From IMG/VR virus record IMGVR_UViG_3300035199_000797, positions 1-59,920 of that record: a stretch of 59,920 bases of DNA; one strand, given 5' to 3'. The notes below the pieces were generated by a model. The model did no database searches, was not told the origin of the DNA, and saw nothing but the letters and a program-made list of their open reading frames with translations. This document shows, one piece after another, positions 149 through 59,840 of the stretch. Position numbers and translations under genes: made by a program. Each line of letters opens with the position of its first letter. The first letter of the stretch is position 1. Origin of the DNA: a virus. Taxonomy: Duplodnaviria > Caudoviricetes.

Positions 149-224
149 GTCCCCATCGTCTAGTGGCCCAGGACGCCGGCCTCTCACGCCGGAAACAGGG
201 GTTCGACTCCCCTTGGGGACGCCA
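149..224 (+). tRNA. tRNA-Glu (anticodon CTC), prophage integration target
   Basis: GTCCCCA/TGGGGAC acceptor stem, anticodon arm CCGGC-CTCTCAC-GCCGG, GTTCGA T-loop, 3' CCA. Confidence 0.97.
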
Positions 225-225
225 G
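179..225 (+). repeat. attL core (47 bp)
   Basis: Identical to 59794-59840; extends to 53 bp with one mismatch. Confidence 0.95.
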
Positions 226-279: not shown

Positions 280-1371
280 TCATTCGTCGCTCTCATCGAT
301 CTTTTTTCGCGCCCGTTTTGCCGCTTCCCGGCCAGGCTTCACATAGGTCTCCAAAACCGGCGAATTTAATTTGTGACCGCTGAAGGAAACGATCTCTGCC
401 ATGGTCGCGCCCTTGTTCCCCATGTTGGTCAAAGCGGTGGTTCTGAGATCGTGGAATGTCAGGCTGCGCTCCAGGCCGGCCCACTTGCATGCCCTCCTGA
501 AAGCCTTCCCGAACGCGTTCTTGTCCTTGTACGGTTGCGTCGTCATTTCGTTGACGATGATGTGCGTGTGGAAGCGGTTGATGCCGTCGAGCATGGTCCG
601 CGTTTTGTCGGCCAGCGGGATCCACAGCTCTTTGCCGCCGCGCCTCTTCTTTTGCGTCACCGTAAACCCGCCCTCGGAATATTGATCCCAGGTTAGGGCG
701 AGAATGTCCTGCTGTGGCAGGCTGGTGTCGAACGCAATCTGTGTTGCCAGCGCGATCGATGGCCTGGACGGCGCGATGTTGCCTTGCTCCGATTTGTGCG
801 AGGTCATCGCGGCTGCGATCACGCGATCTACTTCCCATTGTGTCCAGATCACGTTCCGGCCTGCCGGGCTCTCCATTTTGAAGCCGTACATTGGATGGGT
901 ATCGATGATCTCCAATTCCAGAGCATACGAAAACAGCCGGTGAACCCACTTCATGATCTTGCGGGCTTTGTGGGCCGATCCTTCGATGCGGAGATCATTG
1001 TAGAGGGCGCGCAGATGGCTGCGTCGAATTGCCTTCACGCGCACTTTGCCCACCTCGGCGGCAAACACCCGGAACGCATAATCGATCTCTTGCTGGGTCC
1101 GCGGCGCTTTCGTTCCATACCACGTGGGGTCTTTTTCAAATCGCCCTATCAGCCAGTTGATATCGCCTTTTGGGACGGCGACCAGCGGGTTCGCTTTCAG
1201 GGCATCCCACTCGGCATTGTAGGCGGTGACCTTCGCGACGGCCGCTTTGTGGTCCTCCCCAATCGTTTCGCTACGGTAGCCTGCTTCGCGCATAGCCGGT
1301 GATGGCGTGAAGCGGTAAACCTCGCGCTGGTCCACCGTGGTCCATTTCCGCAAATGCCTGGTCTTTTTCAT
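280..1371 (-). CDS. int: Tyrosine recombinase (phage integrase)
   Basis: HDLR, SGH and C-terminal catalytic Y motifs; adjacent to att; box I Arg position reads Pro. Confidence 0.93.
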   Translation of the reverse strand: MKKTRHLRKWTTVDQREVYRFTPSPAMREAGYRSETIGEDHKAAVAKVTAYNAEWDALKANPLVAVPKGDINWLIGRFEKDPTWYGTKAPRTQQEIDYAFRVFAAEVGKVRVKAIRRSHLRALYNDLRIEGSAHKARKIMKWVHRLFSYALELEIIDTHPMYGFKMESPAGRNVIWTQWEVDRVIAAAMTSHKSEQGNIAPSRPSIALATQIAFDTSLPQQDILALTWDQYSEGGFTVTQKKRRGGKELWIPLADKTRTMLDGINRFHTHIIVNEMTTQPYKDKNAFGKAFRRACKWAGLERSLTFHDLRTTALTNMGNKGATMAEIVSFSGHKLNSPVLETYVKPGREAAKRARKKIDESDE

Positions 1372-8420: not shown

Positions 8421-9161
8421 ATGAATTGGCTACACAACCTTGCGTCTATTGAGCGAAACCTGCGCAAACGCCTGGCGGCCCTTGGGCTTCATGTTGAACG
8501 CCACCATGATTTCGAACAGTTGCGGGATACCGTTGCAGCCGCGGTGACGACACCCTTTAATCCGACGTTCAACCCGGACCTGAGTGACATTGACCCTCAA
8601 AGCTGGTGGCTGGCCGCCCGTGATGGAGCCGGGGATATCGTCGCCACACATGCCGTCAGAGTATTCCGCGACAAAGATTTGGAAGTGTTGATCTGGAACG
8701 GTCTGTTGTTCTTCCGCCGCGAGGACAGGCCCCTGAACTGGTACGAGATCGCTCCCCGCCACCAGCCAACCAAGAACCGGGTGCAAGGCACGTGGTCGCA
8801 CGCCGGAGCAACCTGGGTGCGCAAAGACTGGCGAGGCAGGGGCCTCACCAGTCTATTGCCAATTCTGGATCAAATTGATTGCCTGCGCGATCCCTCAATA
8901 GGCCATGTAACCGGCATCGCTTTTCAGGAAATCGCCGGCCGTTCGATCTTGGAGAAGGGTTACGGCTTCCCACCCGAGCGCGCCGAGAAAATCCTGGACG
9001 GGCATTTCCCAGGCACAGGCCGCAAAGAAGAGCTTTGGCTGTGCCACATGCCCCGAGAAATGGCGATAGGGCATCTAACTTCCGTGTTTAGGGCCGTGAT
9101 AGAGAATGTCCGAGATGGTGATGATGTGTCGGATCTCTCCCGTACTGTCGGCGACGGGTAG
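8421..9161 (+). CDS. GNAT-fold / acyl-synthase-like protein (copy 1)
   Basis: WVRKDWRGRGL acyl-CoA-binding motif A; homologous to 56213-56932. Confidence 0.7.
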   Translation: MNWLHNLASIERNLRKRLAALGLHVERHHDFEQLRDTVAAAVTTPFNPTFNPDLSDIDPQSWWLAARDGAGDIVATHAVRVFRDKDLEVLIWNGLLFFRREDRPLNWYEIAPRHQPTKNRVQGTWSHAGATWVRKDWRGRGLTSLLPILDQIDCLRDPSIGHVTGIAFQEIAGRSILEKGYGFPPERAEKILDGHFPGTGRKEELWLCHMPREMAIGHLTSVFRAVIENVRDGDDVSDLSRTVGDG

Positions 9162-9683
9162 AATGAGCCGGTCATATGCGCTGACGCGTCCATCTATCAT
9201 TGTTCCGCTAATTCGATGAATTACCGGCCGCCGCTCAGGCAGCGCTTCCATGTAGCCTTTGCAGGTTACCTCCACCATATCGGTGGCTGGTAGATCCCCG
9301 ACGCGCCTAGCGATAAACGATTTGGATTCAAAGGCTCCGAAACTGTGGCCCCAGAACCGGAATAGCCAGTTCTCAGGAGAATCTTCGCTCAACGCAATGA
9401 GCGTGGCGCGTGGCCCCTCAAGTAACCACGGGCGCAATAGGTCGTACAATTTGCCGTCTCGACCTTCCTGGAACACCCCGTCCGTCGCGATATTAAACCA
9501 CGACTCCATCGCCATGCTCATACGAAGGTCAGTGATGGCCTCAATTGGGAAACGCTGGCTAAGAGCTACCGTCGACGGCTTAATGGGTAGAAGCGGCACT
9601 TTGGGCTTTGCGAAAGGCCGTGGCGTCGATAGCGGTACTACATTATGAGAGATTCTACTTTTATGCGAGCACAAAACACACAC
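9075..9683 (-). CDS. Stand-alone PAS-like (PAS_5/DUF1457-type) protein (copy 1); start uncertain
   Basis: WLFRFWG...RVGDLP...RRPVIHRI...YDRLILPVADSTGEIRHII pattern. Confidence 0.65.
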   Translation of the reverse strand: MCVLCSHKSRISHNVVPLSTPRPFAKPKVPLLPIKPSTVALSQRFPIEAITDLRMSMAMESWFNIATDGVFQEGRDGKLYDLLRPWLLEGPRATLIALSEDSPENWLFRFWGHSFGAFESKSFIARRVGDLPATDMVEVTCKGYMEALPERRPVIHRISGTMIDGRVSAYDRLILPVADSTGEIRHIITISDILYHGPKHGS

Positions 9684-9757: not shown

Positions 9758-10264
9758 TTATCCAGATGCGATTGCTTCTTCAATCGCACGGTTGGCCTCG
9801 TCTCGTTCACGGGCAAGATCAAAATATGCGCTGATATCAGCCGCGGATGGTAGTTGGCCGGTATCTCGGTAGATCCGCGTAAAATTCGAGCACCCAATTG
9901 CAATGTTCCGCGCCAATTGTTCCGGCGTCTGATCCTGGCTAAGGGCTGCGTCATTTTCGATGCAGAACCGGGCAACGCGATCGATTAAGGCAGGCGGCAC
10001 GTTTTTGTCTCGCTGCTGCGGGGCTGCGGAAAATTCGACCTCACCAATTATTTCGCTGACGGTGGAATCAACCGCGCCGGCGAACTTCATGAGTATGTCA
10101 AGCCGCATAGATTGGGATTGACGGCCCAGGAAATTCCGCAACGTGGAATCGGCAACACCAGCGTCTCTCGCCCATGGGGATACTTCTAATCCCCGAGCCT
10201 TCATAAACCGCTTGATCGCCTGCCTTATCTGTTCTGCATCGCCCGCGTTCATGGGAACAATCAT
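9758..10264 (-). CDS. CI-like repressor (Cro/C1 HTH), no S24 peptidase domain
   Basis: WARDAGVADSTLRNFL HTH; divergent from the cro-like gene. Confidence 0.8.
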   Translation of the reverse strand: MIVPMNAGDAEQIRQAIKRFMKARGLEVSPWARDAGVADSTLRNFLGRQSQSMRLDILMKFAGAVDSTVSEIIGEVEFSAAPQQRDKNVPPALIDRVARFCIENDAALSQDQTPEQLARNIAIGCSNFTRIYRDTGQLPSAADISAYFDLARERDEANRAIEEAIASG

Positions 10265-10351: not shown

Positions 10352-10558
10352 ATGGGAATAGAAGACGCTATCGCCAGGGTTCGCGCATATGCAGAATCCA
10401 AGGGCTGGAGAAAATCCCGGTTAGCGAAAGAGGCGGGCCTCAAAGACACCACGCTACGGCACTTTGACAGACCGACCTGGAACCCAACCGCCGATACCCT
10501 TCGGAGGTTGGAGGCAGTTATTCCTGCGGAGTTCGTGCCGCAGGACCGGGCAACATGA
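10352..10558 (+). CDS. Cro-like HTH protein
   Basis: 68 aa, LAKEAGLKDTTLR...WNPTADTLRRLE. Confidence 0.85.
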   Translation: MGIEDAIARVRAYAESKGWRKSRLAKEAGLKDTTLRHFDRPTWNPTADTLRRLEAVIPAEFVPQDRAT

Positions 10559-12627: not shown

Positions 12628-13262
12628 ACGCCCCGGTTGCCATCGTGCGCGATCCTTGGCCTTGGTCTGACCAAACAGAGCTGGCCAAGGAAGCCGAATG
12701 CTTCGAGACGCCGGCCTGGGCGGTTGAGGCCATCCTGGACGCCGAGCTGCTCACACCCATGGTCATAGATCCCTGTTGCGGTCGCGGCGTCATGGCGCAA
12801 GCCGCCGATCGCCGCGGGCACAACGTCTACGCGATGGACAAATACGATTGGGGCTTTGGCGCCACCGGGCTTGATTTCCTGCATGATCACGACGTTTGGG
12901 GCATGATCCCCGGCGCCACGGTCTTCATGAATCCGCCCTTCAGTTTTGCCGAGCAATTCGTCGAGACCGCTCAAGAATGCGGCGCCCGCAAGATCATCTG
13001 TTTCCAGCGCTTCGCTTGGTACGAGAGCGAACGCCGCACCAAGTTCTGGGCCAAGTATCCACCCAACCGCGTCTATGTCTGTGCCGATCGCGCAACGTGT
13101 TGGCGCATCGATATCGCGCCCAAGGACCGCAAGTCTGGCACCACCACCGCCCACGCCTGGTTTGTTTGGGAGCACGGCCAGCCGCCGGGAACGCTGCTGG
13201 GCCGGCTCTCGAAGAAGCGGCACCCACAAGGTGATCCTGTACAGGGGAGGGCAGCGGAATGA
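12624..13262 (+). CDS. DNA N6-adenine/N4-cytosine methyltransferase
   Basis: DPCCGRG SAM-binding motif and NPPF catalytic motif. Confidence 0.85.
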   Translation: MNAPVAIVRDPWPWSDQTELAKEAECFETPAWAVEAILDAELLTPMVIDPCCGRGVMAQAADRRGHNVYAMDKYDWGFGATGLDFLHDHDVWGMIPGATVFMNPPFSFAEQFVETAQECGARKIICFQRFAWYESERRTKFWAKYPPNRVYVCADRATCWRIDIAPKDRKSGTTTAHAWFVWEHGQPPGTLLGRLSKKRHPQGDPVQGRAAE

Positions 13263-14281
13263 GCCACAGGGCCATGAACTGGGCAACATCGGTGCGCGGC
13301 ATAAGCAGCACCCAAAAGCTGGTGTTGCTCGTCCTGGCCAATGACTACAGGGACGACGAAGATTGCGCCTTTCCAAACCAGCGCCGGATCGCCGATCACG
13401 CTTGCCTATCGCGACGTGCTGTGCAGACCGCACTCGATGGGCTGACAAGATCGGGGCTCATCACGCGCCGGCACAGACAACGCGACAACGGCTCGCGAAC
13501 CAGTGATGAGTACAATTTCAACTTCAACCTAAGCGCACCGGATGCGCCTAGGGATGAAATCCAAGGCGCACCTGAGGCAATCCAAGGCGCACCTCATACC
13601 ATCCAAGGCGCACCTCAGGCAGGCCAAGGCGCACGAGGTGCGCACCCAGAGCCGTTACTAGAACCGTTACCTGAACCGTTACCTGAGCAGGTCCCCGATG
13701 AACCGCAATTGGCCATGGACGCTTGGAATGCCATGGCCGAAGAGTTGGGCTTGGCTCAGGTGCAAGATTTCACCACCGAGCGACGGGCCAAATGCCGTGC
13801 TCGTCTGAAGCAGTGTGGCGGCCTGGAGGGCTGGGGGGCGGCGCTGGCAAAAATTCGCGGCGATCCGTTTTTTTTGGGCGGCGGCCCCCGAGGCTGGATG
13901 GCCGATTTCGATTTTCTGATGCGAAAAAGCAAGTTCACCAAACTGATGGAAGGCGGATATGACCACAAACCTACCGGTGGCAACGACAAGCGGCCGCCTG
14001 ACCACGAACTCCGACGCCGAATTGCTGGCGCGGCGGCTAGTGTCATGGAGGCCGAGCGACGAAGTGCCGGACGATGCGACACCGGAGCGCCTGGCCAGCC
14101 TGCAAACGGAATTGACATTGAGGCTGGAGCCAGCGGGGGCGGAGGCGACAGCGGCGATCCTCTACGAGTTGTTTCTGGTGCTCCCGGCGCCGGCGGAGGC
14201 GGCAATGGCGAAGTACATCGAACGCCTTCAGACCTACCCGGCCTGGGCCTTGAAAGCGGCGATCGACAAGGTGATCGATAA
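13259..14281 (+). CDS. Replication initiator with N-terminal HTH
   Basis: KLVLLVLAN..CAFPNQRRIA HTH; GWMADFDFL..K..EGGY C-domain; internal iterons. Confidence 0.85.
   Translation: MSHRAMNWATSVRGISSTQKLVLLVLANDYRDDEDCAFPNQRRIADHACLSRRAVQTALDGLTRSGLITRRHRQRDNGSRTSDEYNFNFNLSAPDAPRDEIQGAPEAIQGAPHTIQGAPQAGQGARGAHPEPLLEPLPEPLPEQVPDEPQLAMDAWNAMAEELGLAQVQDFTTERRAKCRARLKQCGGLEGWGAALAKIRGDPFFLGGGPRGWMADFDFLMRKSKFTKLMEGGYDHKPTGGNDKRPPDHELRRRIAGAAASVMEAERRSAGRCDTGAPGQPANGIDIEAGASGGGGDSGDPLRVVSGAPGAGGGGNGEVHRTPSDLPGLGLESGDRQGDR
13559..13642 (+). repeat. Four 21-bp iterons, probable replication origin
   Basis: (AT)CCAAGGCGCAC at 13559, 13580, 13601 and 13622; followed by 12-bp GAACCGTTACCT-type repeats. 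Confidence 0.75.
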
Positions 14282-14821: not shown

Positions 14822-15536
14822 ACGTGCTGGCGGGGATCCCAAGTTGATAGCCGAGCATATCGACCGGCTGATGGAACGCGCGACAGAGGCCGGCGCGGTG
14901 CCGATCGATGTATCACCGTTCCAACAAGCCGCGGCTTTGGATTGGAGCAAGGCCCAGGCCCACAACCGGCGCCTTCGCAGGGCCCGCCCCAACCGCATGG
15001 CATTCGCCAAGGAGAAGCTGCCAGACCGCGACGGCGGCACGGTAGAGACACGGCGCAAGATCAAGACCGACGTGATCGCCAGGTTGCTCAAGCAGGGCGA
15101 TATCGAACGCATACACCAATCCGCCGCGGATGAAATCCACGATGTCCAGGTGGCCTTGATGATGTGCTTTTTGCCGTCCAAAGGTTCAGAGGTGCGCGTT
15201 GATGATACGCCCAAGCGGCCGGGCCCGTTGGACAAACTGAGCGCACATCACGAGCGGGTCTTCCGGCTACGATACACGCCGTGGGTTAAGTCCATGATGG
15301 CCAGGCCGGTGGAGTTCAGGGCGCTCGAAGGGGGCAGGGAGCGGCTATTCGCTTATCGGCATGCTCTTGCGATTGTCACGGATGTGGTACTGGATAACGT
15401 CGGTATGCGGGAGGTTGAGGGCCGGCATGGAATCCGGCACGGGCACGCTAGGAGGATAGTGCGGGGCTCGCTGGATCGATATTGTTGCGTGGCGGGTTGG
15501 GTAAAGAGGAGAGGTGTTAGCGACCAATATAGTTGA
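14811..15536 (+). CDS. Putative late-gene regulator (Q-position, C-terminal HTH)
   Basis: Last gene of the rightward early operon; C-terminal sigma4-like HTH pattern (VVLDNVGMREVE...GSLDRY). Confidence 0.6.
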   Translation: MLVERAGGDPKLIAEHIDRLMERATEAGAVPIDVSPFQQAAALDWSKAQAHNRRLRRARPNRMAFAKEKLPDRDGGTVETRRKIKTDVIARLLKQGDIERIHQSAADEIHDVQVALMMCFLPSKGSEVRVDDTPKRPGPLDKLSAHHERVFRLRYTPWVKSMMARPVEFRALEGGRERLFAYRHALAIVTDVVLDNVGMREVEGRHGIRHGHARRIVRGSLDRYCCVAGWVKRRGVSDQYS

Positions 15537-16119
15537 CTTGGCCATCAGCCTGGATCAACGCTATTTCGATCCCGGCAATTCGGCAGCGGTCAATCATCTT
15601 CTGCGCCAGTCGGCTTGTCCCCTCAGTGCAAGGGACGACTGCAACATTCCTTTCCTGGCCTGGGTCGCGAGACATTAAGAGGCCGACTACTTCACATAAT
15701 CCACTACGAAGTCGAGATTTTAGACCTGGGTGGCGTGTGTTTAGTATCCCGCCCTTGCACTCCGCGATGATTTTTTGACGGTCGGTCAATGCCACGACGT
15801 CTCCCAGACCGGGTTTCAGGCTGACAACAATGGTTCTTTCCCCATCGTTGTAAACACCGCCGTATTGTGTGCTCCCGACAGCCTTTGTGTGCTGAAATCC
15901 ATGCTTTTCCAACCATCCGCGAATGTCGAACCGTTTACCGTGTTCGCCATCAGGGTGAATTTCGATCTCTCGCAGGCCGGGCACCGTCTCAAATAGATGC
16001 ATGGAAAAGGCAAGCAATACCGCTGCTTCTGTAAGGTGATGCTCCATACTACCGTCGGTTTTGTTCTTTCGACTTTCTGGGGGCACACGTTTATCAATGA
16101 GGTCTTCGTAAGTTTTCAT
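15517..16119 (-). CDS. PD-(D/E)XK restriction-endonuclease-like protein
   Basis: GDVVA...IIAECKGG...GLLM motif. Confidence 0.6.
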   Translation of the reverse strand: MKTYEDLIDKRVPPESRKNKTDGSMEHHLTEAAVLLAFSMHLFETVPGLREIEIHPDGEHGKRFDIRGWLEKHGFQHTKAVGSTQYGGVYNDGERTIVVSLKPGLGDVVALTDRQKIIAECKGGILNTRHPGLKSRLRSGLCEVVGLLMSRDPGQERNVAVVPCTEGTSRLAQKMIDRCRIAGIEIALIQADGQVNYIGR

Positions 16120-20267: not shown

Positions 20268-20420
20268 AATGTCGTGCTCGATAATGTCGGCTTGCGGGAG
20301 GTCGAGGAGCGGCACGGGGTGCGGCATGGACATGGGCGGAAGGTGGTGAGGGGGCTGGAGCGGTATTGCAAAGTGGCGAGGTGGTTAGAGAAGAGAGGTT
20401 TTATCGACCAACATAGTTGA
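20268..20420 (+). repeat. Diverged copy 3 of the late-regulator 3' end
   Basis: NVVLDNVGLREVEERHGVRHGHGRKVVRGLERYCKVARWLEKRGFIDQHS*. Confidence 0.9.
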
Positions 20421-20705
20421 CCTGGCCATCAGCCTGGATCAAAGCTATTTCGATCCCGGCAATTCGGCAGCGATCAATTATCTTCTGGGCCAGCCGATTT
20501 GTCCCTTCTGTGTAGGGGACGACTGCGATATTCCTTTCCTTGCCCGGGCAGCGAGTCATTAAGAGGCCGACCGCCTCACATAGTCCGCTACGAAGGCGGG
20601 ATTTTTGACCTGCGTGGCGGGTGTTCATTATCCCTCCCTTACATTCCGCGATGAATGTTTGGTGGTCGGTCAATGCCACTACATTCCCAAGACCAGGTAT
20701 CAGCC
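20401..20705 (-). pseudogene. 5'-truncated paralogue of the 15517-16119 nuclease
   Basis: IAECKGG...IEIALIQADGQVNYVGR nearly identical to the C-half of 15517-16119; N-half absent. Confidence 0.85.
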
Positions 20706-49573: not shown

Positions 49574-50359
49574 GTGGCGAAGAAACGACGCGCTAAAGGG
49601 CGGTTTAGAGACTTCATTGGGGGGCAGGACACCGCTGAGGGGATTCTGCCCCTGACCCATATCACACGTGCGTTCTCGTTCGATGATATGTTGGACGGTG
49701 ACGGTCTTGAGCCCGAGCCCTGCGATGTTTTCGGCGAGGAACTTATCTATCTCTTTTATGGCCGGCCGGCTTATCGGGCAAGAGATGGTTCCAACGCGCG
49801 ATTGGAGTATTCATGGCCAGTTGTTTTCATTTTCGACCCCAAAGAAGTTCAAAGCGTAAAGCGCGTATTTCCTTTCGACACAGGAGCTTTCAAGAATGGA
49901 CGCTATAATGGATTCTTCGACGAACGTAATGTAAGGAACGATTTTGAATTGCATCCGACTATAGAAAGTGCCCGCCAAATTGTTGGCACATTTTACCAGG
50001 ACCATACTGAATATTTCACGGGCCTATCAAGGAAGAACGTAGATCTTCCAATCCGCCAATTCGAAGCGCAAGGCATTCATGAAATGGCAAAATTACCTGG
50101 GGATAGCCGTGACGAACGATCCTCGGCAATTGAAGTCCAGATTAGCGATTTTATCAATTTCAGGGATAGCCTTTTGGCTATAGTAATTCCGGATGTCTAC
50201 CTTGACGATTCCGAAACTATATCCGCTCTTAAAAATTGGCAGATCGATTTCGACAACATTAGGACCTATCAAACGCTGCACAACATGGGCGGGGAAGCAT
50301 GGATTGGTCAGATTTATGCGATCGTTAGAAACCTTTACGAAAAATTGGGGTACCTCTAA
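49574..50359 (+). CDS. Putative ADP-ribosyltransferase-fold protein
   Basis: LTHIT...GLEP...IYLFYGRP...VFIFD...AIEVQ, resembling H-Y/S-E ART strands. Confidence 0.4.
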   Translation: MAKKRRAKGRFRDFIGGQDTAEGILPLTHITRAFSFDDMLDGDGLEPEPCDVFGEELIYLFYGRPAYRARDGSNARLEYSWPVVFIFDPKEVQSVKRVFPFDTGAFKNGRYNGFFDERNVRNDFELHPTIESARQIVGTFYQDHTEYFTGLSRKNVDLPIRQFEAQGIHEMAKLPGDSRDERSSAIEVQISDFINFRDSLLAIVIPDVYLDDSETISALKNWQIDFDNIRTYQTLHNMGGEAWIGQIYAIVRNLYEKLGYL

Positions 50360-52605
50360 TGATATCAACGAATAATTCAGAGTTCAGCCATCAAATCGCT
50401 GACTCGTTGGTGCAGAATGGGCGGCTCGTGGGCTGTCTGCGGCTGGGTGGCAAATCGCCGAGCGCCGTGTTGCCGGTATTCATCGACGCCGATAATTTGG
50501 ACGCTCCAATGCTTCTCTACCAGCGAATTGATGAGATGGGCCTAGTTCTTAAATTTGTCGAAGACCGAGACCTTAATTCGAACCAATTACTGAGTGTGGA
50601 GAATACGGGCCAAGACCACATAGTGGTTTCCATCGGCGACCCCGCTGCGCAAGCCTACGAAATCAATGAAATGAATGTGTTCGTGGCACAGGGCGATGTA
50701 TTTCGAGAGCGAATGAGTGCTGCTCTCGATGATGAGACTTTTTCGGGAAGGCCCTTTACCGGGCTTGGAGTTGCGCGTTTTCTCGGCGATGCTGCTGCCG
50801 AACGACGCTATCTAGAGGCCTGCAATCATGCTCTCTCCACATACACGCCACGTATGGCACAAGCCGGGCGAACCTCGACGGATATGGGGAAAATTGTTGT
50901 CGGGTCTGCCGGTGAATCCGAACCGAGCACAGAAAATGAACTAGGAACAACAGAGGAAATACCCGATGGAAATCAACGAATTGTTAGTGCTGCGATCAAT
51001 TTCCACAGAAAATTTGCGGATATGCCACGCCTCGTTGCAGATATCGACCCGCCCGTCAGGCAACGTTCCGTACAGCCGAATTTTCGCAATCTAATAAGCG
51101 CGACCACCAACCTGAAAAGCGCGCTAAGGACTTCGAGCTCCCTGCCAGCCATATTTCCATTGGTCGAAGTTGAGGAACTTCTCGAAACCATTCTGCTTTT
51201 TCCAGACAGCAGCCCTCAAGAACTTCCGACCCTACTTCAAGCGGCGGAGAGTGTTCTGTCGGACCTGCGTAACGAGTATGTCCCGCGAAATCCCGCGGAT
51301 GGCGACGACAAAGAATTGCCGGGTTTTGGAAACCTGCGCCAGGCGGCGAGTGAGGTTGTCGCGGAATTGCGGGGAGTATTCTTGAGATTAGACCCGGTCG
51401 TTGTCGCGGCGACGACACCGACCAGCGAGGAATTAGCGGCGTTCGCCCCAGAAGCAGGGCAAGTCGACTTGTTGGCCGAAGTGGTCAACGACACGCGTGA
51501 GGCGGACGCGGCGATCGAGCGCGGCAAGAAAGAAATTGAGCAAAACAATTACCACCTCGTCGGCATCAACATCACTATCAAGTTAAACGATCTTAAGATC
51601 GGCGATGCTCTGATCCGTGCCATCGCCAAGTTGGACATGGTGCGTCTGCATTGGCTCGAGAAGCTGGGTGGAAGCCTGGCCAAGGCTCCCGAGGCAATAC
51701 TAACATTGGCAGAAGCATTGCCACCTGCTCTCGGTGCAATCGAAATTGTCGCCAGAGAACTGAGAGAGGGGACTGCCAGGATCGCATCTCATCTCAATCA
51801 GTTATCAAGTGGCACGACGCAATTGTCACATGGAATCAGACCTGATCTTTCTAGCTTCCGCGACGCTGAGTGGTCGCCGGAGATGGTGGTGATTCCCCAG
51901 GGGACATTCCTGATGGGGTCGCCGGTGGGTGAGGAGGACCGCGATGATGATGAAGGTCCGCAACACGATGTGGCAGTCAGCGGCTTTGCGCTTGGCCGTT
52001 ATCCGGTCACGTTCGAGGATTATGATCGGTATTGCGAGGCGAAGCGGATCGAAAAACCCGGTGATGAAGATTGGGGCCGGGGCCGGCGGCCGGTGATCAA
52101 TGTCTCGTGGGAGGATGCCCAGAATTATATCATATGGCTGAACGAGACCCTTGAGTTATCACTGGGCACCTATCGCCTGCCGTCCGAGGCTGAATGGGAG
52201 TACGCCTGCCGGGCGGGGACGGCGAGCCGTTATTCAGGCGGTGACCATGAGGCAGAGCTAGACGCCCAGGCCTGGGAGACGGAGCTTGACGCCCATGCAT
52301 GGCATAGGGAGAACTCGGATTCAGGATCCCATCGGGTGAGCGAGAAGCTTGCCAACCCCTGGGGCCTTTTCGACATGCATGGCAATGTCTGGGAATGGAC
52401 CGAAGATCGCTGGCACGACAATTATAATGGCGCTTCAGGTGATGGCTCTGCCTGGATTGCAGGTAACGACAAACTCCGTGTTCTTCGCGGCGGCTCTTGG
52501 AACAACGGCCCTAGGAACCTGCGCGTGGCGGCCCGCAACAAGGAGGGCCCGGAGGAGCGCTACTTCACCGTGGGCTTCCGCCTTGCCAGGACGCTTTCGC
52601 GCTAG
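50359..52605 (+). CDS. Multidomain protein with C-terminal FGE-sulfatase (C-type lectin fold) domain
   Basis: FLMGS, YRLPSEAEWEYACRAG, NPWGLFDMHGNVWEW, RGGSW, GFRLAR. Confidence 0.9.
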   Translation: MISTNNSEFSHQIADSLVQNGRLVGCLRLGGKSPSAVLPVFIDADNLDAPMLLYQRIDEMGLVLKFVEDRDLNSNQLLSVENTGQDHIVVSIGDPAAQAYEINEMNVFVAQGDVFRERMSAALDDETFSGRPFTGLGVARFLGDAAAERRYLEACNHALSTYTPRMAQAGRTSTDMGKIVVGSAGESEPSTENELGTTEEIPDGNQRIVSAAINFHRKFADMPRLVADIDPPVRQRSVQPNFRNLISATTNLKSALRTSSSLPAIFPLVEVEELLETILLFPDSSPQELPTLLQAAESVLSDLRNEYVPRNPADGDDKELPGFGNLRQAASEVVAELRGVFLRLDPVVVAATTPTSEELAAFAPEAGQVDLLAEVVNDTREADAAIERGKKEIEQNNYHLVGINITIKLNDLKIGDALIRAIAKLDMVRLHWLEKLGGSLAKAPEAILTLAEALPPALGAIEIVARELREGTARIASHLNQLSSGTTQLSHGIRPDLSSFRDAEWSPEMVVIPQGTFLMGSPVGEEDRDDDEGPQHDVAVSGFALGRYPVTFEDYDRYCEAKRIEKPGDEDWGRGRRPVINVSWEDAQNYIIWLNETLELSLGTYRLPSEAEWEYACRAGTASRYSGGDHEAELDAQAWETELDAHAWHRENSDSGSHRVSEKLANPWGLFDMHGNVWEWTEDRWHDNYNGASGDGSAWIAGNDKLRVLRGGSWNNGPRNLRVAARNKEGPEERYFTVGFRLARTLSR

Positions 52606-56115: not shown

Positions 56116-56212
56116 TTTTACTCCTCTTCACCATTAGTAGTGGCGAACGGTTCAAGTTTGCGCAACCGAAAATTTTTGGACAAACCGCCCCCCAGAAAAG
56201 AGGTAACGCCCC

Positions 56213-56932
56213 ATGACGGCCATTGCACCCGCACGCGACATCCACGCCGAATATGCTGCCCTGCAGGACGCCTACGATGCCGAAGAGGCCGCGCTCCGGG
56301 CGAAAGGCTTCACAGTCGCGCCCAAGTGTACCTCCGACTGGCTGGCGTTCATGCGGCTCTATGGCGCCAATACGAACCCATCCTTTGAGCCGTCGCAGGC
56401 AGTGACGGCGGAGAACAGCCTATCGTTGATCTGCCGGGATCCCGATGGCCAGGCGGTCGGAGCGATCGCACTCCGCGCCTATGACATGGCGGATATCCGC
56501 GAGCACCTGGTTACGGGGCGTCTGTGGTGGCCAGCCCATGAAGCGATCCAGCACCGGGTTGAATATGTGCTGCCCGGCGACTTCCCGCCCATATCCGGTC
56601 GCGTGGTGCAGATCGGCGGCTTGAAGGTTGTTCGCAATGGGCACCGGATTGGCAGCCACCTCGACGCCATGGCGCGGCTGGCAGCGGCGAGCCTCTTTCA
56701 TGCCGATCACATCGTTGCCATCCGAATGTCGGACAAGGTGGCGGAAATGCCGGGTGACTATTACGGGGCAAGGCGCACGGCGCTGGCGGTCCGGGCCCTA
56801 TCGATCGGCTGCCCGGCGGCGGAGTTTCACCTGACCCATATCAGCCGGGAAGAGCTTCTAGGCGGCCTCATGGATGGCGGCGATGACGACGTGCTGGACG
56901 CAGCCCATATCGTCGGTTACGCCGGTTACTAG
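56213..56932 (+). CDS. GNAT-fold / acyl-synthase-like protein (copy 2)
   Basis: Aligns by eye to 8421-9161 (NPSFEP, RDPDGQAVGAIALR, THISRE); GAGGT RBS. Confidence 0.65.
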   Translation: MTAIAPARDIHAEYAALQDAYDAEEAALRAKGFTVAPKCTSDWLAFMRLYGANTNPSFEPSQAVTAENSLSLICRDPDGQAVGAIALRAYDMADIREHLVTGRLWWPAHEAIQHRVEYVLPGDFPPISGRVVQIGGLKVVRNGHRIGSHLDAMARLAAASLFHADHIVAIRMSDKVAEMPGDYYGARRTALAVRALSIGCPAAEFHLTHISREELLGGLMDGGDDDVLDAAHIVGYAGY

Positions 56933-57556
56933 GCGCCGGTAGCCGAGCGCCGTTGTGGTCTGGCGCCAGACAAAATCATAGGACGGGCGCCGGCGCAGCT
57001 TGGCCCGGAAGTACGCCTCTTCGGCCTGCTCCCGAAAGGCAGGGTAGGGGATGCTGGATAGCCACTGCCCATCGCCCGCGGATTCTTCGGTGTTGCGCCC
57101 GCGGTGAACAAAGAACCAGCGGTTCGGATCGTTCGCCGCCACGTTGACCACGTGCAGGGTATCGACAAGCGGCTCCAGATCTAGCGGGTCGTGGTCGGCC
57201 TCGAGCAGATCCTTGATTGGCGCCAGGCCGTCCTGCTCGTAGTGGTCGAAGTCCTCCACCTTCATATGAGCCACCTTGATATCGCAGCCAGGGCTGTTGA
57301 AGCGGCTTTCCATGGGCGGAGACACCTTGATGGTGCGGCCATCTACCGTGGGCCCTGTGCGCTCTCCAGCCCTCCCCATCCGCCCTATTGCCAGCTCTGC
57401 CGCTGTTGCTATTGCGGGCTCGATAACGGCCCCTGCAGCTGCGCCCAGGCCCGGCATTGCCCCTGCCGCCATCCCCAACGCCTCACCAGCGAAGAGCGGG
57501 CCCATGCGCCTTGCAGCAGCGGACCATCTACTGGGTATACGGGGCCTTGATTTCAC
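56858..57556 (-). CDS. Stand-alone PAS-like protein (copy 2); start may be 57313 or 57265
   Basis: DPNRWFFVHRG...RRRPSY...YRRLV..VTDDMGCVQHVV, aligns to 9075-9683. Confidence 0.6.
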   Translation of the reverse strand: MKSRPRIPSRWSAAARRMGPLFAGEALGMAAGAMPGLGAAAGAVIEPAIATAAELAIGRMGRAGERTGPTVDGRTIKVSPPMESRFNSPGCDIKVAHMKVEDFDHYEQDGLAPIKDLLEADHDPLDLEPLVDTLHVVNVAANDPNRWFFVHRGRNTEESAGDGQWLSSIPYPAFREQAEEAYFRAKLRRRPSYDFVWRQTTTALGYRRLVTGVTDDMGCVQHVVIAAIHEAA

Positions 57557-57681
57557 TGCTTCAACGCTTTCTCCAATTTCGCCACATACGCGAACAGCGC
57601 TTCGATACCGCTCCGGCTAAGTTTGCCGTCTGTATCGAACTGTTCCCGCATATCGGCCAATTCTTCGGGGTTGAGGGGCAT
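57553..57681 (-). CDS. 42-aa hypothetical protein
   Basis: MPLNPEELADMREQF...ALKQ*, GTGA-coupled to the PAS ORF. Confidence 0.4.
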   Translation of the reverse strand: MPLNPEELADMREQFDTDGKLSRSGIEALFAYVAKLEKALKQ

Positions 57682-57732: not shown

Positions 57733-59610
57733 CTACCACGACCTCGAGCGACCGCCATTAAAGAATAATCTCTCTGGATCGGGGATCTCCCAGTCCTTGC
57801 GGCATGCTTTCATCCGATATCTTGCCTCGAAGTTTCTGGGAAGTTTCGTTTCCAGATCGCCACAAGCGAAGACGAGCATGTCCCTTGTCAAGCCGCTCAC
57901 ATTTCGTAGGTCGGCGGCACTGAAGTTGACCCCTGCGAATTTGACGCCCGCCATTTTGGCGCCTTGAAGATAGGCACTGCGGAGGTCGGCTCCCTCGAAA
58001 TTGGCGCCTTTGAGGATTGTGCCTTCAAGGTTGGCGCCATGGAGATTTGCCCAAGACAAGTTTGCCCCATTGAGGTGCGCGAGTCTGAGGTTGGCCCCTT
58101 GAAGATTGGCGAATCGGAGTTTGGCCCATCGGAGTTTAGCCGATTCGAGATTAGCCCCCTGGAGTTTCGCCTGATCGAGTGTTGCCCGCTGAAATTCAGC
58201 GTCCTTGAGGTCGGCCTTCGCAAGGAACACTGACTTGGCTCCTGAAAACCGGAGGTCCGCACCCCTTAATTTGGCGCCTATCACTTCAGCCATTGCCTTC
58301 TGGAATTCCAGCCTGTCAGTTATATCCGGCATAACAGACAGATTGGCAGGCTTGGTTGATACATCAACTTCTGTCAGTTCGGCGTAGGTGGCGAAACCCA
58401 ACAGGTCGACAGCCACAGGTCCACCGATGGCGAGATACGTCAGACCAAGTGATACCAACAACACTGAAGTGGTGACGCGAGCTTCCAGAAACGGTCGTCG
58501 CCAATCGAGGCCAGCTTGAGTACCTGCCAACGTAGCCTTCATTCGTCGAAAGAAAGAAATGCCGGCCCATGAAGTAACTGCTATCGCGACGATCAAAAAT
58601 GCGCTGCCGATCCAGTCATGCCTGGGCAGATAGCGGAGCCAACACGCCCACAATGTGACGGGCACAAGAAACCATGCGGCAAGTACAGACAGCCCAACTT
58701 TGATCAGGGTCAATGGCGTCCGACCGGCGTTGAGTTTTGATACGTAAATGGTAACGAGGCTGGTCAGCAGCCAGGGATAGGCGGTCGCTTCCAGCCTGCG
58801 GCCATCGGGAAAAATTGCCGGAAGCTCGCCCAGGCCGTCCCACATGCTTTGCAAGTAGACATGTTGGTAAAAGTAGAGCACCAAAAGGATCATGGGCGCG
58901 GCCAAAAAGAACCAAGCTATCGGAATTGACGCATTGATGATCGGCAGCGGCGTACCCGATGAATTTGTCAAAAGGGCGGCATCGGTCGTAGTGGCGATGG
59001 TCAGCCAGACGTAGACACATGCGCTGATCATGGCGAGGAAGATGTTGCGGGCGTGTTTGGAATTTTCCTCGACTTGCTTGAGGCCCCGGAATTTCTCAAT
59101 ATCGTCCGGCAGCTTCGCATTGGACAAGTTAGTACCCGCGAGTTGACCGGCCTGGAGACCTGACACCTTCGACAAATTCGCATCGTTCAAGGCCGCGTTG
59201 CGCAAATTTGCGTTTAATAATTTGGCGCCCCCGAATTCAGCGTATCCGAGATTGGAGCTTCGAAGATCGGCCAACCTGAGGTCGGCGTCCTGAAGGTCGG
59301 CGCTATGAAGGTTGGCGCAATGAAGGTCGGCCTGAAAAAGTTTGGTATTCGCAAGTTTGGCTTCAAAGAAATCCACCTGCGAGAGTATCGCGCGTTTAAG
59401 ATCGGCGCCTTCCAAATTTACGCTCAGGGCGGTCGCGCCGGTTATATTGGCTTGCTGGCCTTCTTTGCCGCGGCTCTTCACCCACTTGTCATGCTCGGCA
59501 AGCATGTCTTTCAACTCGTCTTGGGAAATTTCGACACCAGCCATTACTCTGCCCTCCAGAACTTTCTGCGTCCAATTTTCGTTCTCAGCCCTATCGAGGC
59601 GCCTTTCCAT
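57733..59610 (-). CDS. Pentapeptide-repeat membrane protein (repeats-TM-repeats)
   Basis: Two A(D/N)Lxx repeat blocks flanking about five TM helices. Confidence 0.9.
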
Positions 59611-59793
59611 ACTAGCGCACCTTCAATCCCCATACGATATTGCCCTGCTATGGTGAGAACGCACGTTCGCTCTTTCCGCAATCAATTTGTAGGGTCGGAG
59701 AAGGGGAGTAGCCAAACGATTTGGTCTGAATTTAGGTAACTTTTGGCTGTAAAAATTAGTCGCAACATTCGCAGACTGCTGCCAAAAACGCCA

Positions 59794-59840
59794 GCCTCTC
59801 ACGCCGGAAACAGGGGTTCGACTCCCCTTGGGGACGCCAG
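59794..59840 (+). repeat. attR core (duplicated tRNA-Glu 3' end)
   Basis: Identical to 179-225. Confidence 0.95.

Follow-up and report, generated by a model that had tools for sequence, protein, structure and literature searches.

A stretch of viral DNA of 59,920 bp (Duplodnaviria; Caudoviricetes; IMG/VR record IMGVR_UViG_3300035199_000797), referred to below at its full length as the window, contains two pairs of convergent genes, each consisting of a gene for a putative GNAT-type acyltransferase (the enzyme) and a gene for a PAS-like protein (the partner). The subject of this report is the pair at 56213–57556 (pair 2), with the pair at 8421–9683 (pair 1) serving as the reference copy. Pair 2 is a true copy of the module seen in pair 1, from which it has diverged strongly, and the module that the two represent is widespread and undescribed. 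As judged from the distribution and phylogeny of the sequences, the two genes are inherited, duplicated and moved as one unit, which constitutes an unnamed module of the Alphaproteobacteria.

The pair-2 enzyme gene lies on the plus strand at 56213–56932 and encodes, from an ATG start, 239 amino acids (aa) of an acyltransferase-like protein of predicted GNAT fold, belonging to an unnamed family and bearing a degenerate motif A. The partner gene lies on the minus strand at 56858–57556 and encodes 232 aa from a GTG codon, with a PAS_5-like domain at approximately residues 81–230. Later starts for the partner are possible at 57505 (M18) or 57472 (M29), and the form found in the protein database is 204 aa. 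The 3′ ends of the genes overlap by 75 bp (56858–56932, both strands), an interval of 25 exactly opposed codon pairs that encodes the last 24 residues of the enzyme and the last 24 of the partner. As was claimed in a preliminary description of this DNA, layout, overlap and codon register are those of pair 1, where the overlap is 87 bp; both lengths are multiples of three, so that the codons of the two genes are exactly opposite. The G+C contents by codon position of the two pair-2 open reading frames (ORFs) are of the coding type (.70/.47/.75 and.68/.50/.74; the window has 57% G+C).

Pairwise comparison of the two copies, taken alone, provides marginal evidence of homology: BLASTP gave an E value of 2e-4 for the enzymes (26% identity over 76 aa) and of 9e-5 for the partners (22% over 97 aa). 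Profile–profile comparison with hhalign, using target alignments without pair 2's own clade, matched the pair-2 enzyme to the enzyme family with a probability of 99.5% (E=1.4e-22, 200 columns) and the pair-2 partner to the partner family with a probability of 97.6% (E=3.2e-12, 107 columns), so that the alignments are significant at the profile level. A narrower comparison for the partner, in which the target alignment was dominated by one clade, reached only 51% and is superseded by the broader alignment. The short motifs named earlier as shared between the copies (NPTFNP/NPSFEP, CHMPRE/THISRE, PENWLF/PNRWFF and YDRL/YRRL) align as claimed, within the low overall identities given above. These profile comparisons indicate that both pair-2 proteins are true distant homologues of the pair-1 proteins.

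The closest relative of pair 2 is a locus designated L003, which was found by a genome scan in an alphaproteobacterial metagenome-assembled genome. There the pair is present at 88% nucleotide identity, with an overlap again of 75 bp, in an island of about 6 kb situated at the same tRNA-Glu, between the same type of att repeats and without the phage body. The conserved cassette corresponds to 56190–57611 of the window (1,422 bp, 88.3% by blastn); outside it, the window and L003 match only in the flanks of the attachment sites, in stretches of 91 and 60 bp and in short repeats, and the rest cannot be aligned. Besides the pair-2 cassette, the island (2130–8461 of L003) contains AT-rich membrane ORFs and a gene for a solute-binding protein, and genes for phage structural proteins are absent. 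In appearance it is either the remnant of a prophage or some other element in which the cassette has been retained. The ratios of nonsynonymous to synonymous substitution rates relative to L003 are 0.07 for the enzyme, 0.14 for the partner and 0.16 for the N-terminal 75 codons of the partner, with only seven substitutions in the overlap. These ratios are evidence of strong purifying selection on both pair-2 genes.

Searches of 5.8 billion proteins yielded two relatives of the pair-2 enzyme, P0002 (64% identity) and P0003 (47%), and a single one of the partner, P0005 (57%). P0002 and P0005 are each encoded on a 17,933-bp contig. When the tails of these two proteins were placed in a codon-aligned antiparallel overlap, all 24 of 24 codon pairs were compatible with reverse complementarity, where 18% is expected of a random residue pair, and no other offset was fully compatible. 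The protein tails, on which this deduction is based, thus indicate that at a protein identity of about 60% the register is kept, in an overlap of 72 bp. No matches to either enzyme were found by tblastn in 50,697 GenBank phage records, and single-protein searches of viral contigs and two metagenome scans gave no further loci.

A profile search was performed on 33 genomes of the order to which the genome of L003 belongs. The enzyme was present in 27 of these, and its 44 rows were merged to 40 loci. It is apparent that the homologues are usually paired within the order: 31 of the 40 loci have a partner gene within 250 bp, in every case convergent. A further locus has a convergent partner at 1.2 kb, two are at contig ends and six are unpaired, among which are two short fragments and two orthologues that face a 480-aa ORF. 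The genome of L003 contains two further pairs besides L003. In a class-level sample of 151 genomes the enzyme was found at E≤1e-10 in only nine. Outside the order, the 12 strong enzyme hits (E≤1e-20) comprised eight convergent pairs, one tandem second enzyme, one contig edge and two unpaired genes; of the seven weaker class-level hits, none had an adjacent partner, and in one a partner lay about 1 kb away. The enzyme is nearly always paired, and the wider PAS_5 sensor family is not.

Two features of the enzyme genes were observed incidentally. At L060 (1318–3324, minus strand) enzyme-family genes of 305 and 310 aa stand in tandem, with a single partner convergent to the first. At seven loci (L039, L040, L047, L048, L053, L056 and L057) the enzymes are fragments or are split by an in-frame stop codon or a frameshift, and the adjacent partner is mostly intact; the enzyme gene may decay before the partner.

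For phylogenetic analysis and overlap counts, 29 intact pairs were retained, L039, L040, L048, L053 and L054 being left out on account of split or frameshifted enzymes. All 29 are convergent. In 28 of them the genes share up to 267 bp or lie no more than 170 bp apart, and in the remaining one there is a gap of 1,225 bp. The enzyme and partner trees have many clades in common. In both, pair 2 (labelled W2) joins L003 in a group with (L045, L047), and (L041, L042) groups with (L049, L050); the clades (L016, L043), (L021, L022, L023) and (L046, L051, L052) are likewise shared, as is a conserved clade of ten members next to which pair 1 branches. A Mantel test over the 29 pairs gave r=0.97 (none of 5,000 permutations as high), a type of correlation that is inflated by shared species history. 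When one representative was taken per clade (13 pairs, none more than 44% identical), r was 0.64, and none of 20,000 permutations was as high. The deep splits separate paralogous types that coexist in one genome, which argues that both genes duplicated or moved together. With respect to pairing, convergence and agreement of the trees, these results uphold the earlier proposal of an old, co-inherited unit. Overlap is frequent in the pairs but not universal, being absent from 11 of the 29.

In the 18 intact pairs that do overlap, the overlaps range from 23 to 267 bp and all except one are multiples of three. The 11 without overlap are the members of the ten-member clade, with gaps of 16–170 bp, and the single pair with the 1,225-bp gap. 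By our grouping of clades, the codon-aligned register is found in 10 of the 11 overlapping clades within the order; outside the order, all eight adjacent pairs overlap (29–222 bp), four of them in this register. The enzyme tails of several clades, those of pairs 1 and 2 included, are alike and are the reverse-complement image of conserved strands of the partner, and the codon of the partner that faces the enzyme stop codon is one for Leu or Ser. In the models of pair 2, the mean predicted local distance difference test score (pLDDT) of the enzyme tail falls to 58 (residues 221–230) and 38 (residues 231–239), values that predict disorder, and the overlapping last strand of the partner (220–229) is confidently modelled. 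In the antisense frames of the window's long ORFs, stops are least frequent in the codon-aligned frame (0.014 per codon; 0.026 and 0.036 in the others).

A tail that is predicted to be disordered and that mirrors the last β-strands of the partner suggests that the common register is best explained by inheritance. In an ancestor, the enzyme gene would have been extended into the sequence antisense to the partner's last strands, in the most tolerant frame, and the register would have persisted in its descendants, since a frameshift there would be harmful to both proteins. According to a preprint (10.1101/2025.11.07.687268), a different phase is the commonest among natural convergent overlaps, so that the register of these pairs is not simply a general bias. 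The shared codon register was also considered as independent evidence of design, and was rejected: it follows from common descent with in-frame insertions and deletions, and it fails in four of the eight pairs outside the order. The earlier view of the overlap as a point of design is accordingly weakened by the 11 non-overlapping pairs, by these out-of-register overlaps and by the disordered enzyme tail. The overlap is frequent and old, yet dispensable for the module. Where present, it would make the two genes physically inseparable and, if both are transcribed, would give them messenger RNAs with complementary 3′ ends. Scans for promoters and terminators, made around both pairs and in one relative that has no overlap, yielded numbers that shuffled sequences would also be expected to give.

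The enzyme family is large. An HMMER search of 1.84 billion sequences yielded 1,141 cluster representatives at E≤1e-3, 619 of them at ≤1e-10; members are mostly 220–270 aa long, match over their whole length, and have an N-terminal helix–strand region of their own and an NPxF(D/E)P motif. Among 122 aligned members, 24 match Acetyltransf_1 and 10 match Acetyltransf_7 (E≤0.01), and the five Pfam families matched by the 122 include no LuxI-type or FeeM-type model. The pair-2 enzyme has no match in Pfam (0 families at E≤1), NCBIfam, PHROGs or PADLOC; with no direct match to a GNAT profile, it is tied to the Acetyltransf-matching members through the 99.5% hhalign result. An AlphaFold2 model of this enzyme, built from the family alignment, has a pLDDT of 91.1 and a predicted template modelling score (pTM) of 0.88. 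With that model Foldseek found 211 PDB chains at E≤1e-3 (best 2e-6), most with target-normalised template modelling (TM) scores of 0.45–0.65 and none standing out. The top matches listed are N-acetyltransferases or acyl-homoserine lactone (AHL) synthases (TofI and LasI), with the exception of 6ee1, the M. tuberculosis ICL2 with acetyl-coenzyme A (acetyl-CoA). The nearest neighbours of the ESM Atlas model of the pair-1 enzyme (pTM 0.81) are 'hypothetical' clusters, followed by GNAT and FeeM clusters. Searched by sequence, the PDB gave a best E value of 0.49 for the enzyme family, and nothing better than 0.4 for either family. On the basis of the models, the pair-2 enzyme has a GNAT fold, in which helices flank a mixed β-sheet.

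The AlphaFold2 model of the pair-2 partner shows the PAS order of strands and helices over residues 81–230, where the mean pLDDT of 10-residue blocks is 66–92; residues 1–80 are below 50. With few exceptions the Foldseek matches listed for it (E=8e-4 to 4e-2) are to PAS or LOV domains, and the modelling assigns it a PAS-type fold over 81–230. There is no match to PAS_5 (PF07310) at E≤1, the curated cut-off of 22 bits not being reached. In the partner family, 4 of 31 members match PAS_5 at E≤0.05, and the partners of L021 (25.7 bits), L064 (34.9 bits) and L067 (44.6 bits) are above the cut-off; the ESM Atlas clusters nearest to the pair-1 partner carry PAS_5 (score 0.96). The GNAT and PAS labels of the preliminary description are, therefore, backed by structure prediction and family links, and not by a direct Pfam match of pair 2.

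The N-terminal region of about 80 residues in the pair-2 partner is absent from pair-1-type partners. At about residues 23–82 (57310–57490, minus strand) it contains a G-x3-G-x3-G-x3-G-x-G-x3-G run, which is present also in P0005 and L003. This glycine-rich segment may be membrane-associating or oligomerising. A recognisable DNA-binding domain occurs in the partner of L059 (459–1400, minus strand), where an N-terminal RHH_4 domain (E=8e-16; 58 bits, the cut-off being 25) is fused to the PAS-like domain, in a gene that overlaps its GNAT gene by 94 bp. The partners of L062 and L045 have sub-threshold helix–turn–helix (HTH) matches.

The genes of the window include an integrase (280–1371, minus strand), a helicase, a large terminase, a major head protein and a tape measure protein. 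At its left end is a tRNA-Glu(CTC) gene (149–224, plus strand), the 3′ part of which is contained in a 60-nt direct repeat, attL (166–225, plus strand), that recurs with 93% identity as attR at 59781–59840 (plus strand). The integrase, the tRNA-Glu and the two att repeats indicate that the window is an integrated temperate phage, and the host element is a marine, temperate, tRNA-Glu-integrated, siphovirus-like prophage. Given the position of attR, pair 2 belongs to the integrated element, whose right end is 2.2 kb away, and it is cargo of an accessory region near attR. It is surrounded by small ORFs, the membrane character of neighbours being judged from sequence alone, and by a 625-aa protein encoded between it and attR (57733–59610, minus strand), in which a hydrophobic central part is flanked on either side by pentapeptide repeats (Pfam E=2e-51). 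In L003 an unrelated AT-rich ORF takes the place of this protein.

Pair 1 belongs to the immunity region. Its enzyme gene (8421–9161, plus strand; 246 aa, of the same family as the pair-2 enzyme) overlaps by the above-mentioned 87 bp a gene for a PAS_5-like partner of 202 aa (9075–9683, minus strand). The database form of this partner is 144 aa and starts at residue 59; a conserved N-terminal helix in the family alignment lies upstream of that Met, so that the true start is probably earlier. The partner gene begins 75 bp downstream of, and on the same strand as, a gene for a cI-like repressor of the Cro/C1-type HTH class (9758–10264, minus strand; PF13443 HTH_26, E=1.3e-7, above the cut-off), which is faced by a cro-like HTH ORF (10352–10558, plus strand; HTH_31, 0.0047, below the cut-off). 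An HTH neighbour was considered as a general third component of the module and was rejected, since the flanks of the L015-type loci differ, with genes resembling a metallo-β-lactamase-type hydrolase and an acyl-CoA dehydrogenase (as judged from ORF translations only), and the neighbour of L016 resembles the cI-like protein weakly (E=0.001).

Some other sequences of the window were recorded in passing. Around the replication/helicase region there are a 300-nt direct repeat of 82% identity (15451–15750 and 20335–20634) and a G-rich element of 52 nt that occurs four times (15464, 16304, 17442 and 20348). A 21-nt unit is repeated three times in frame and in tandem at 13559–13634, inside the ORF at 13259–14281. 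Downstream of the tail genes, a 748-aa protein is encoded at 50359–52605 (plus strand), and its C-terminal 240 residues match PHROG 18508 'kinase' (E=5e-54).

With regard to function, the reading that we favour, to which we would assign about an even chance, is that of an enzyme accompanied by a ligand-sensing regulator, the PAS-like domain sensing the product or substrate of the enzyme. The enzyme would make or modify a small acylated molecule, and the partner would bind that molecule or its precursor and pass the information on. In some relatives the output would be through a fused DNA-binding domain. The partners in the prophage would act through another protein, in the case of pair 1 plausibly the neighbouring cI-like repressor, and in that of pair 2 one possibly reached via the glycine-rich N-terminal region. 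The layout, homology, pairing and co-diversification of the genes, the folds and the purifying selection were read directly from the data above; catalysis, ligand sensing and regulatory output are what we infer from them. The DNA-binding domains fused to some partners are the strongest functional clue, fitting a sensor-regulator tied to an enzyme.

A number of observations weigh against this interpretation. The motif A of GNAT proteins (Q/R-x-x-G-x-G/A), in the loop between β4 and α3, holds the pyrophosphate of CoA. In the pair-2 enzyme, as had been noticed in the preliminary description, this motif is degenerate: it reads VVRN--GHRIGSHL where relatives have WV.P..RG.GL, with a two-residue deletion and a gap at an Arg that is conserved in at least 90% of the 122 relatives. 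In the sister clade (L045, L047) the corresponding sequence is W-P-(G/A)-(F/Y)-Q-G-(K/N)-R-I-G. The pair-2 enzyme may, on this evidence, use acyl-CoA in an unusual manner or be non-catalytic. None of the four proteins of pairs 1 and 2 has a match at a useful level in Pfam, NCBIfam, PHROGs or PADLOC, and pair 2 itself matches no model of these collections. The Foldseek scores of the pair-2 partner are weak (one match at E≤1e-3, target-normalised TM scores of about 0.5–0.6), and it is without a DNA-binding domain. Five partner assignments (L041, L042, L049, L050 and L054) are weak as well, with E values of 9e-6 to 8e-4 for a set of 1,000 ORFs and a model from which their own clade was left out. 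Ordinary PAS_5 genes are far commoner than the enzyme, with many in one genome, and do not neighbour it: in genome G001, none of 11 PF07310 matches is on the three contigs that hold enzyme loci. Convergent orientation is, moreover, unusual for a local regulator and its target.

Alternative explanations were weighed against the same data. The simplest, that pair 2 consists of unrelated ORFs which happen to converge and whose likeness to pair 1 is noise, would accommodate the marginal BLASTP values (E about 1e-4) and the want of a direct family match for pair 2. It is refuted by the profile–profile E values, the dozens of paired loci and the congruent trees, and we give it almost no credence. 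A regulated acetyltransferase complex, in which the PAS-like protein is a regulatory subunit or a substrate of the GNAT and no diffusible product is sensed, is in our estimation unlikely. In its favour, the enzyme is almost always partnered and the partner's wider family is mostly without an enzyme, so that the enzyme seems dependent on the partner, and the family matches are to the acetyl-CoA-type models Acetyltransf_1 and Acetyltransf_7, with no LuxI- or FeeM-type model among the five. Co-transcription is, however, the rule for subunits of one complex, and the pairs found here are without exception convergent; the DNA-binding fusion in L059, too, points to a role in transcription. A predicted complex of the pair-2 enzyme with partner residues 81–232 had a median score of 0.19, against a mark of 0.32, which counts neither way on binding.

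A conflict module, that is, a GNAT toxin or phage-exclusion effector with a PAS-like antidote or trigger, carried as a defence or addiction cassette of the prophage, we consider quite unlikely. The location of pair 2 in an accessory region by attR, among membrane and pentapeptide-repeat cargo genes, is what such a cassette might show, as are its survival in the apparent prophage remnant L003 and the existence of very divergent versions in the family. Known GNAT toxin–antitoxin pairs are arranged as co-directional operons, in which the antitoxin is small and of the RHH type and the toxin has about 170 aa, a layout from which the convergent pair-2 genes depart; no PADLOC family was matched by the four proteins or three neighbours; and one whole clade retains 74–95% enzyme identity across the order, next to housekeeping-type genes in L015 (judged from their translations), which is more like a stable chromosomal function. 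The overlap may itself be functional, through convergent transcription and mutual antisense repression such that one gene is expressed at a time. There is no terminator-like site between or just beyond the pair-2 genes, so that transcripts from the two sides would be expected to meet; most clades have overlaps; and PMC3386692 contains an analogous, unproven proposal for convergent luxR/luxI pairs with overlaps of 2–79 bp. That 11 of 29 intact pairs dispense with overlap, that its length varies from 23 to 267 bp and its register varies outside the order, that the enzyme's share of it is predicted to be disordered, and that the codon-aligned antisense frame, with its few stops, is where long run-on overlaps would most easily arise by chance, all make this explanation unlikely.

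The favoured reading, of an enzyme with a ligand-sensing regulator, has a bolder form that we regard as unlikely. In it the module would be a small-molecule communication or sensing system outside LuxI/LuxR, in which an acylated signal made by the GNAT synthase is read by the PAS_5-like receptor, and the prophage would possess two orthogonal channels. One channel would be wired to the cI switch and the other would be an attR-proximal cassette capable of outliving the phage, and the overlap would keep each synthase welded to its cognate receptor as specificities diversify.

If the product of the enzyme is the ligand of the partner, the pairs described here would represent a widespread and unstudied class of signalling or sensing module of bacteria and phages. 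The prophage would then be a compact test case for cross-talk and specificity, with two diverged copies, one of them by the lysis–lysogeny switch. The enzyme family alone comprises more than 1,000 sequence clusters, and both families are without an assigned function or a solved structure. For the study of long convergent overlaps the family also offers a natural series, which extends from pairs 170 bp apart to pairs that share 267 bp; within the overlap, the DNA opposite the codons for a structured β-strand of one protein encodes a disordered tail of the other. On a modest reading, two large families of 'hypothetical proteins' have been annotated and tied together. In the literature searched (supplementary files excluded), no description was found of the module or of the function of PF07310, that accession being named only in another context.

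Among known systems, the single-domain PAS_5 proteins of the Alphaproteobacteria (PF07310, formerly DUF1457) resemble the partner in size and predicted fold. They differ in that the pair-2 partner scores below the PAS_5 model and has the extra N-terminus of about 80 residues, and in that ordinary PAS_5 genes are not beside an enzyme gene. The FeeM-type N-acyl amino acid synthases are comparable with the enzyme to the extent that the pair-1 Atlas model aligns to FeeM and Acetyltransf_1 clusters with TM scores of 0.5–0.6. Unlike the named GNAT families, FeeM included, the enzymes form a separate, unnamed family distinguished by the NPxF(D/E)P motif, and pair 2 is without the motif-A Arg.

With respect to arrangement, the closest counterparts are luxR/luxI genes. 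Convergent luxR/luxI pairs of the 'R2' topology, with 3′ overlaps of 2–79 bp, are reported from 53 proteobacterial genomes in PMC3386692; in these, a gene for a synthase of GNAT-related fold faces a receptor gene, as the enzyme gene faces the partner gene here, and in both cases the 3′ ends overlap and the two are inherited as units. Structurally, the pair-2 enzyme also matches the AHL synthases TofI and LasI (E=4e-5 to 9e-5), although acetyl-CoA-type GNATs score at least as well in Foldseek and the family matches include no LuxI-type model. The partner has a PAS_5-like domain and not the autoinducer-binding domain plus HTH of LuxR, and the LuxI and LuxR Pfam families were unmatched by pair 1, pair 2, the 122 enzyme relatives and the 31 partner relatives. 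The Roseobacter prophages described by Bunsick et al. (bioRxiv 2026, PMC13345283) carry xre-luxR-luxI operons with true LuxI and LuxR proteins and identified autoinducers. These too are alphaproteobacterial prophage modules that stand beside an xre/cI-type gene and behave as exchangeable cassettes, and the order in pair 1, namely cI-like HTH gene, PAS-like partner and GNAT enzyme, is comparable. In contrast to those operons as there described, the enzyme genes of pairs 1 and 2 are convergent, the proteins are of other families, and pair 2 is away from the switch region. The resemblance of the module to luxR/luxI and to xre-luxR-luxI is, by this analogy, one of layout and logic only.

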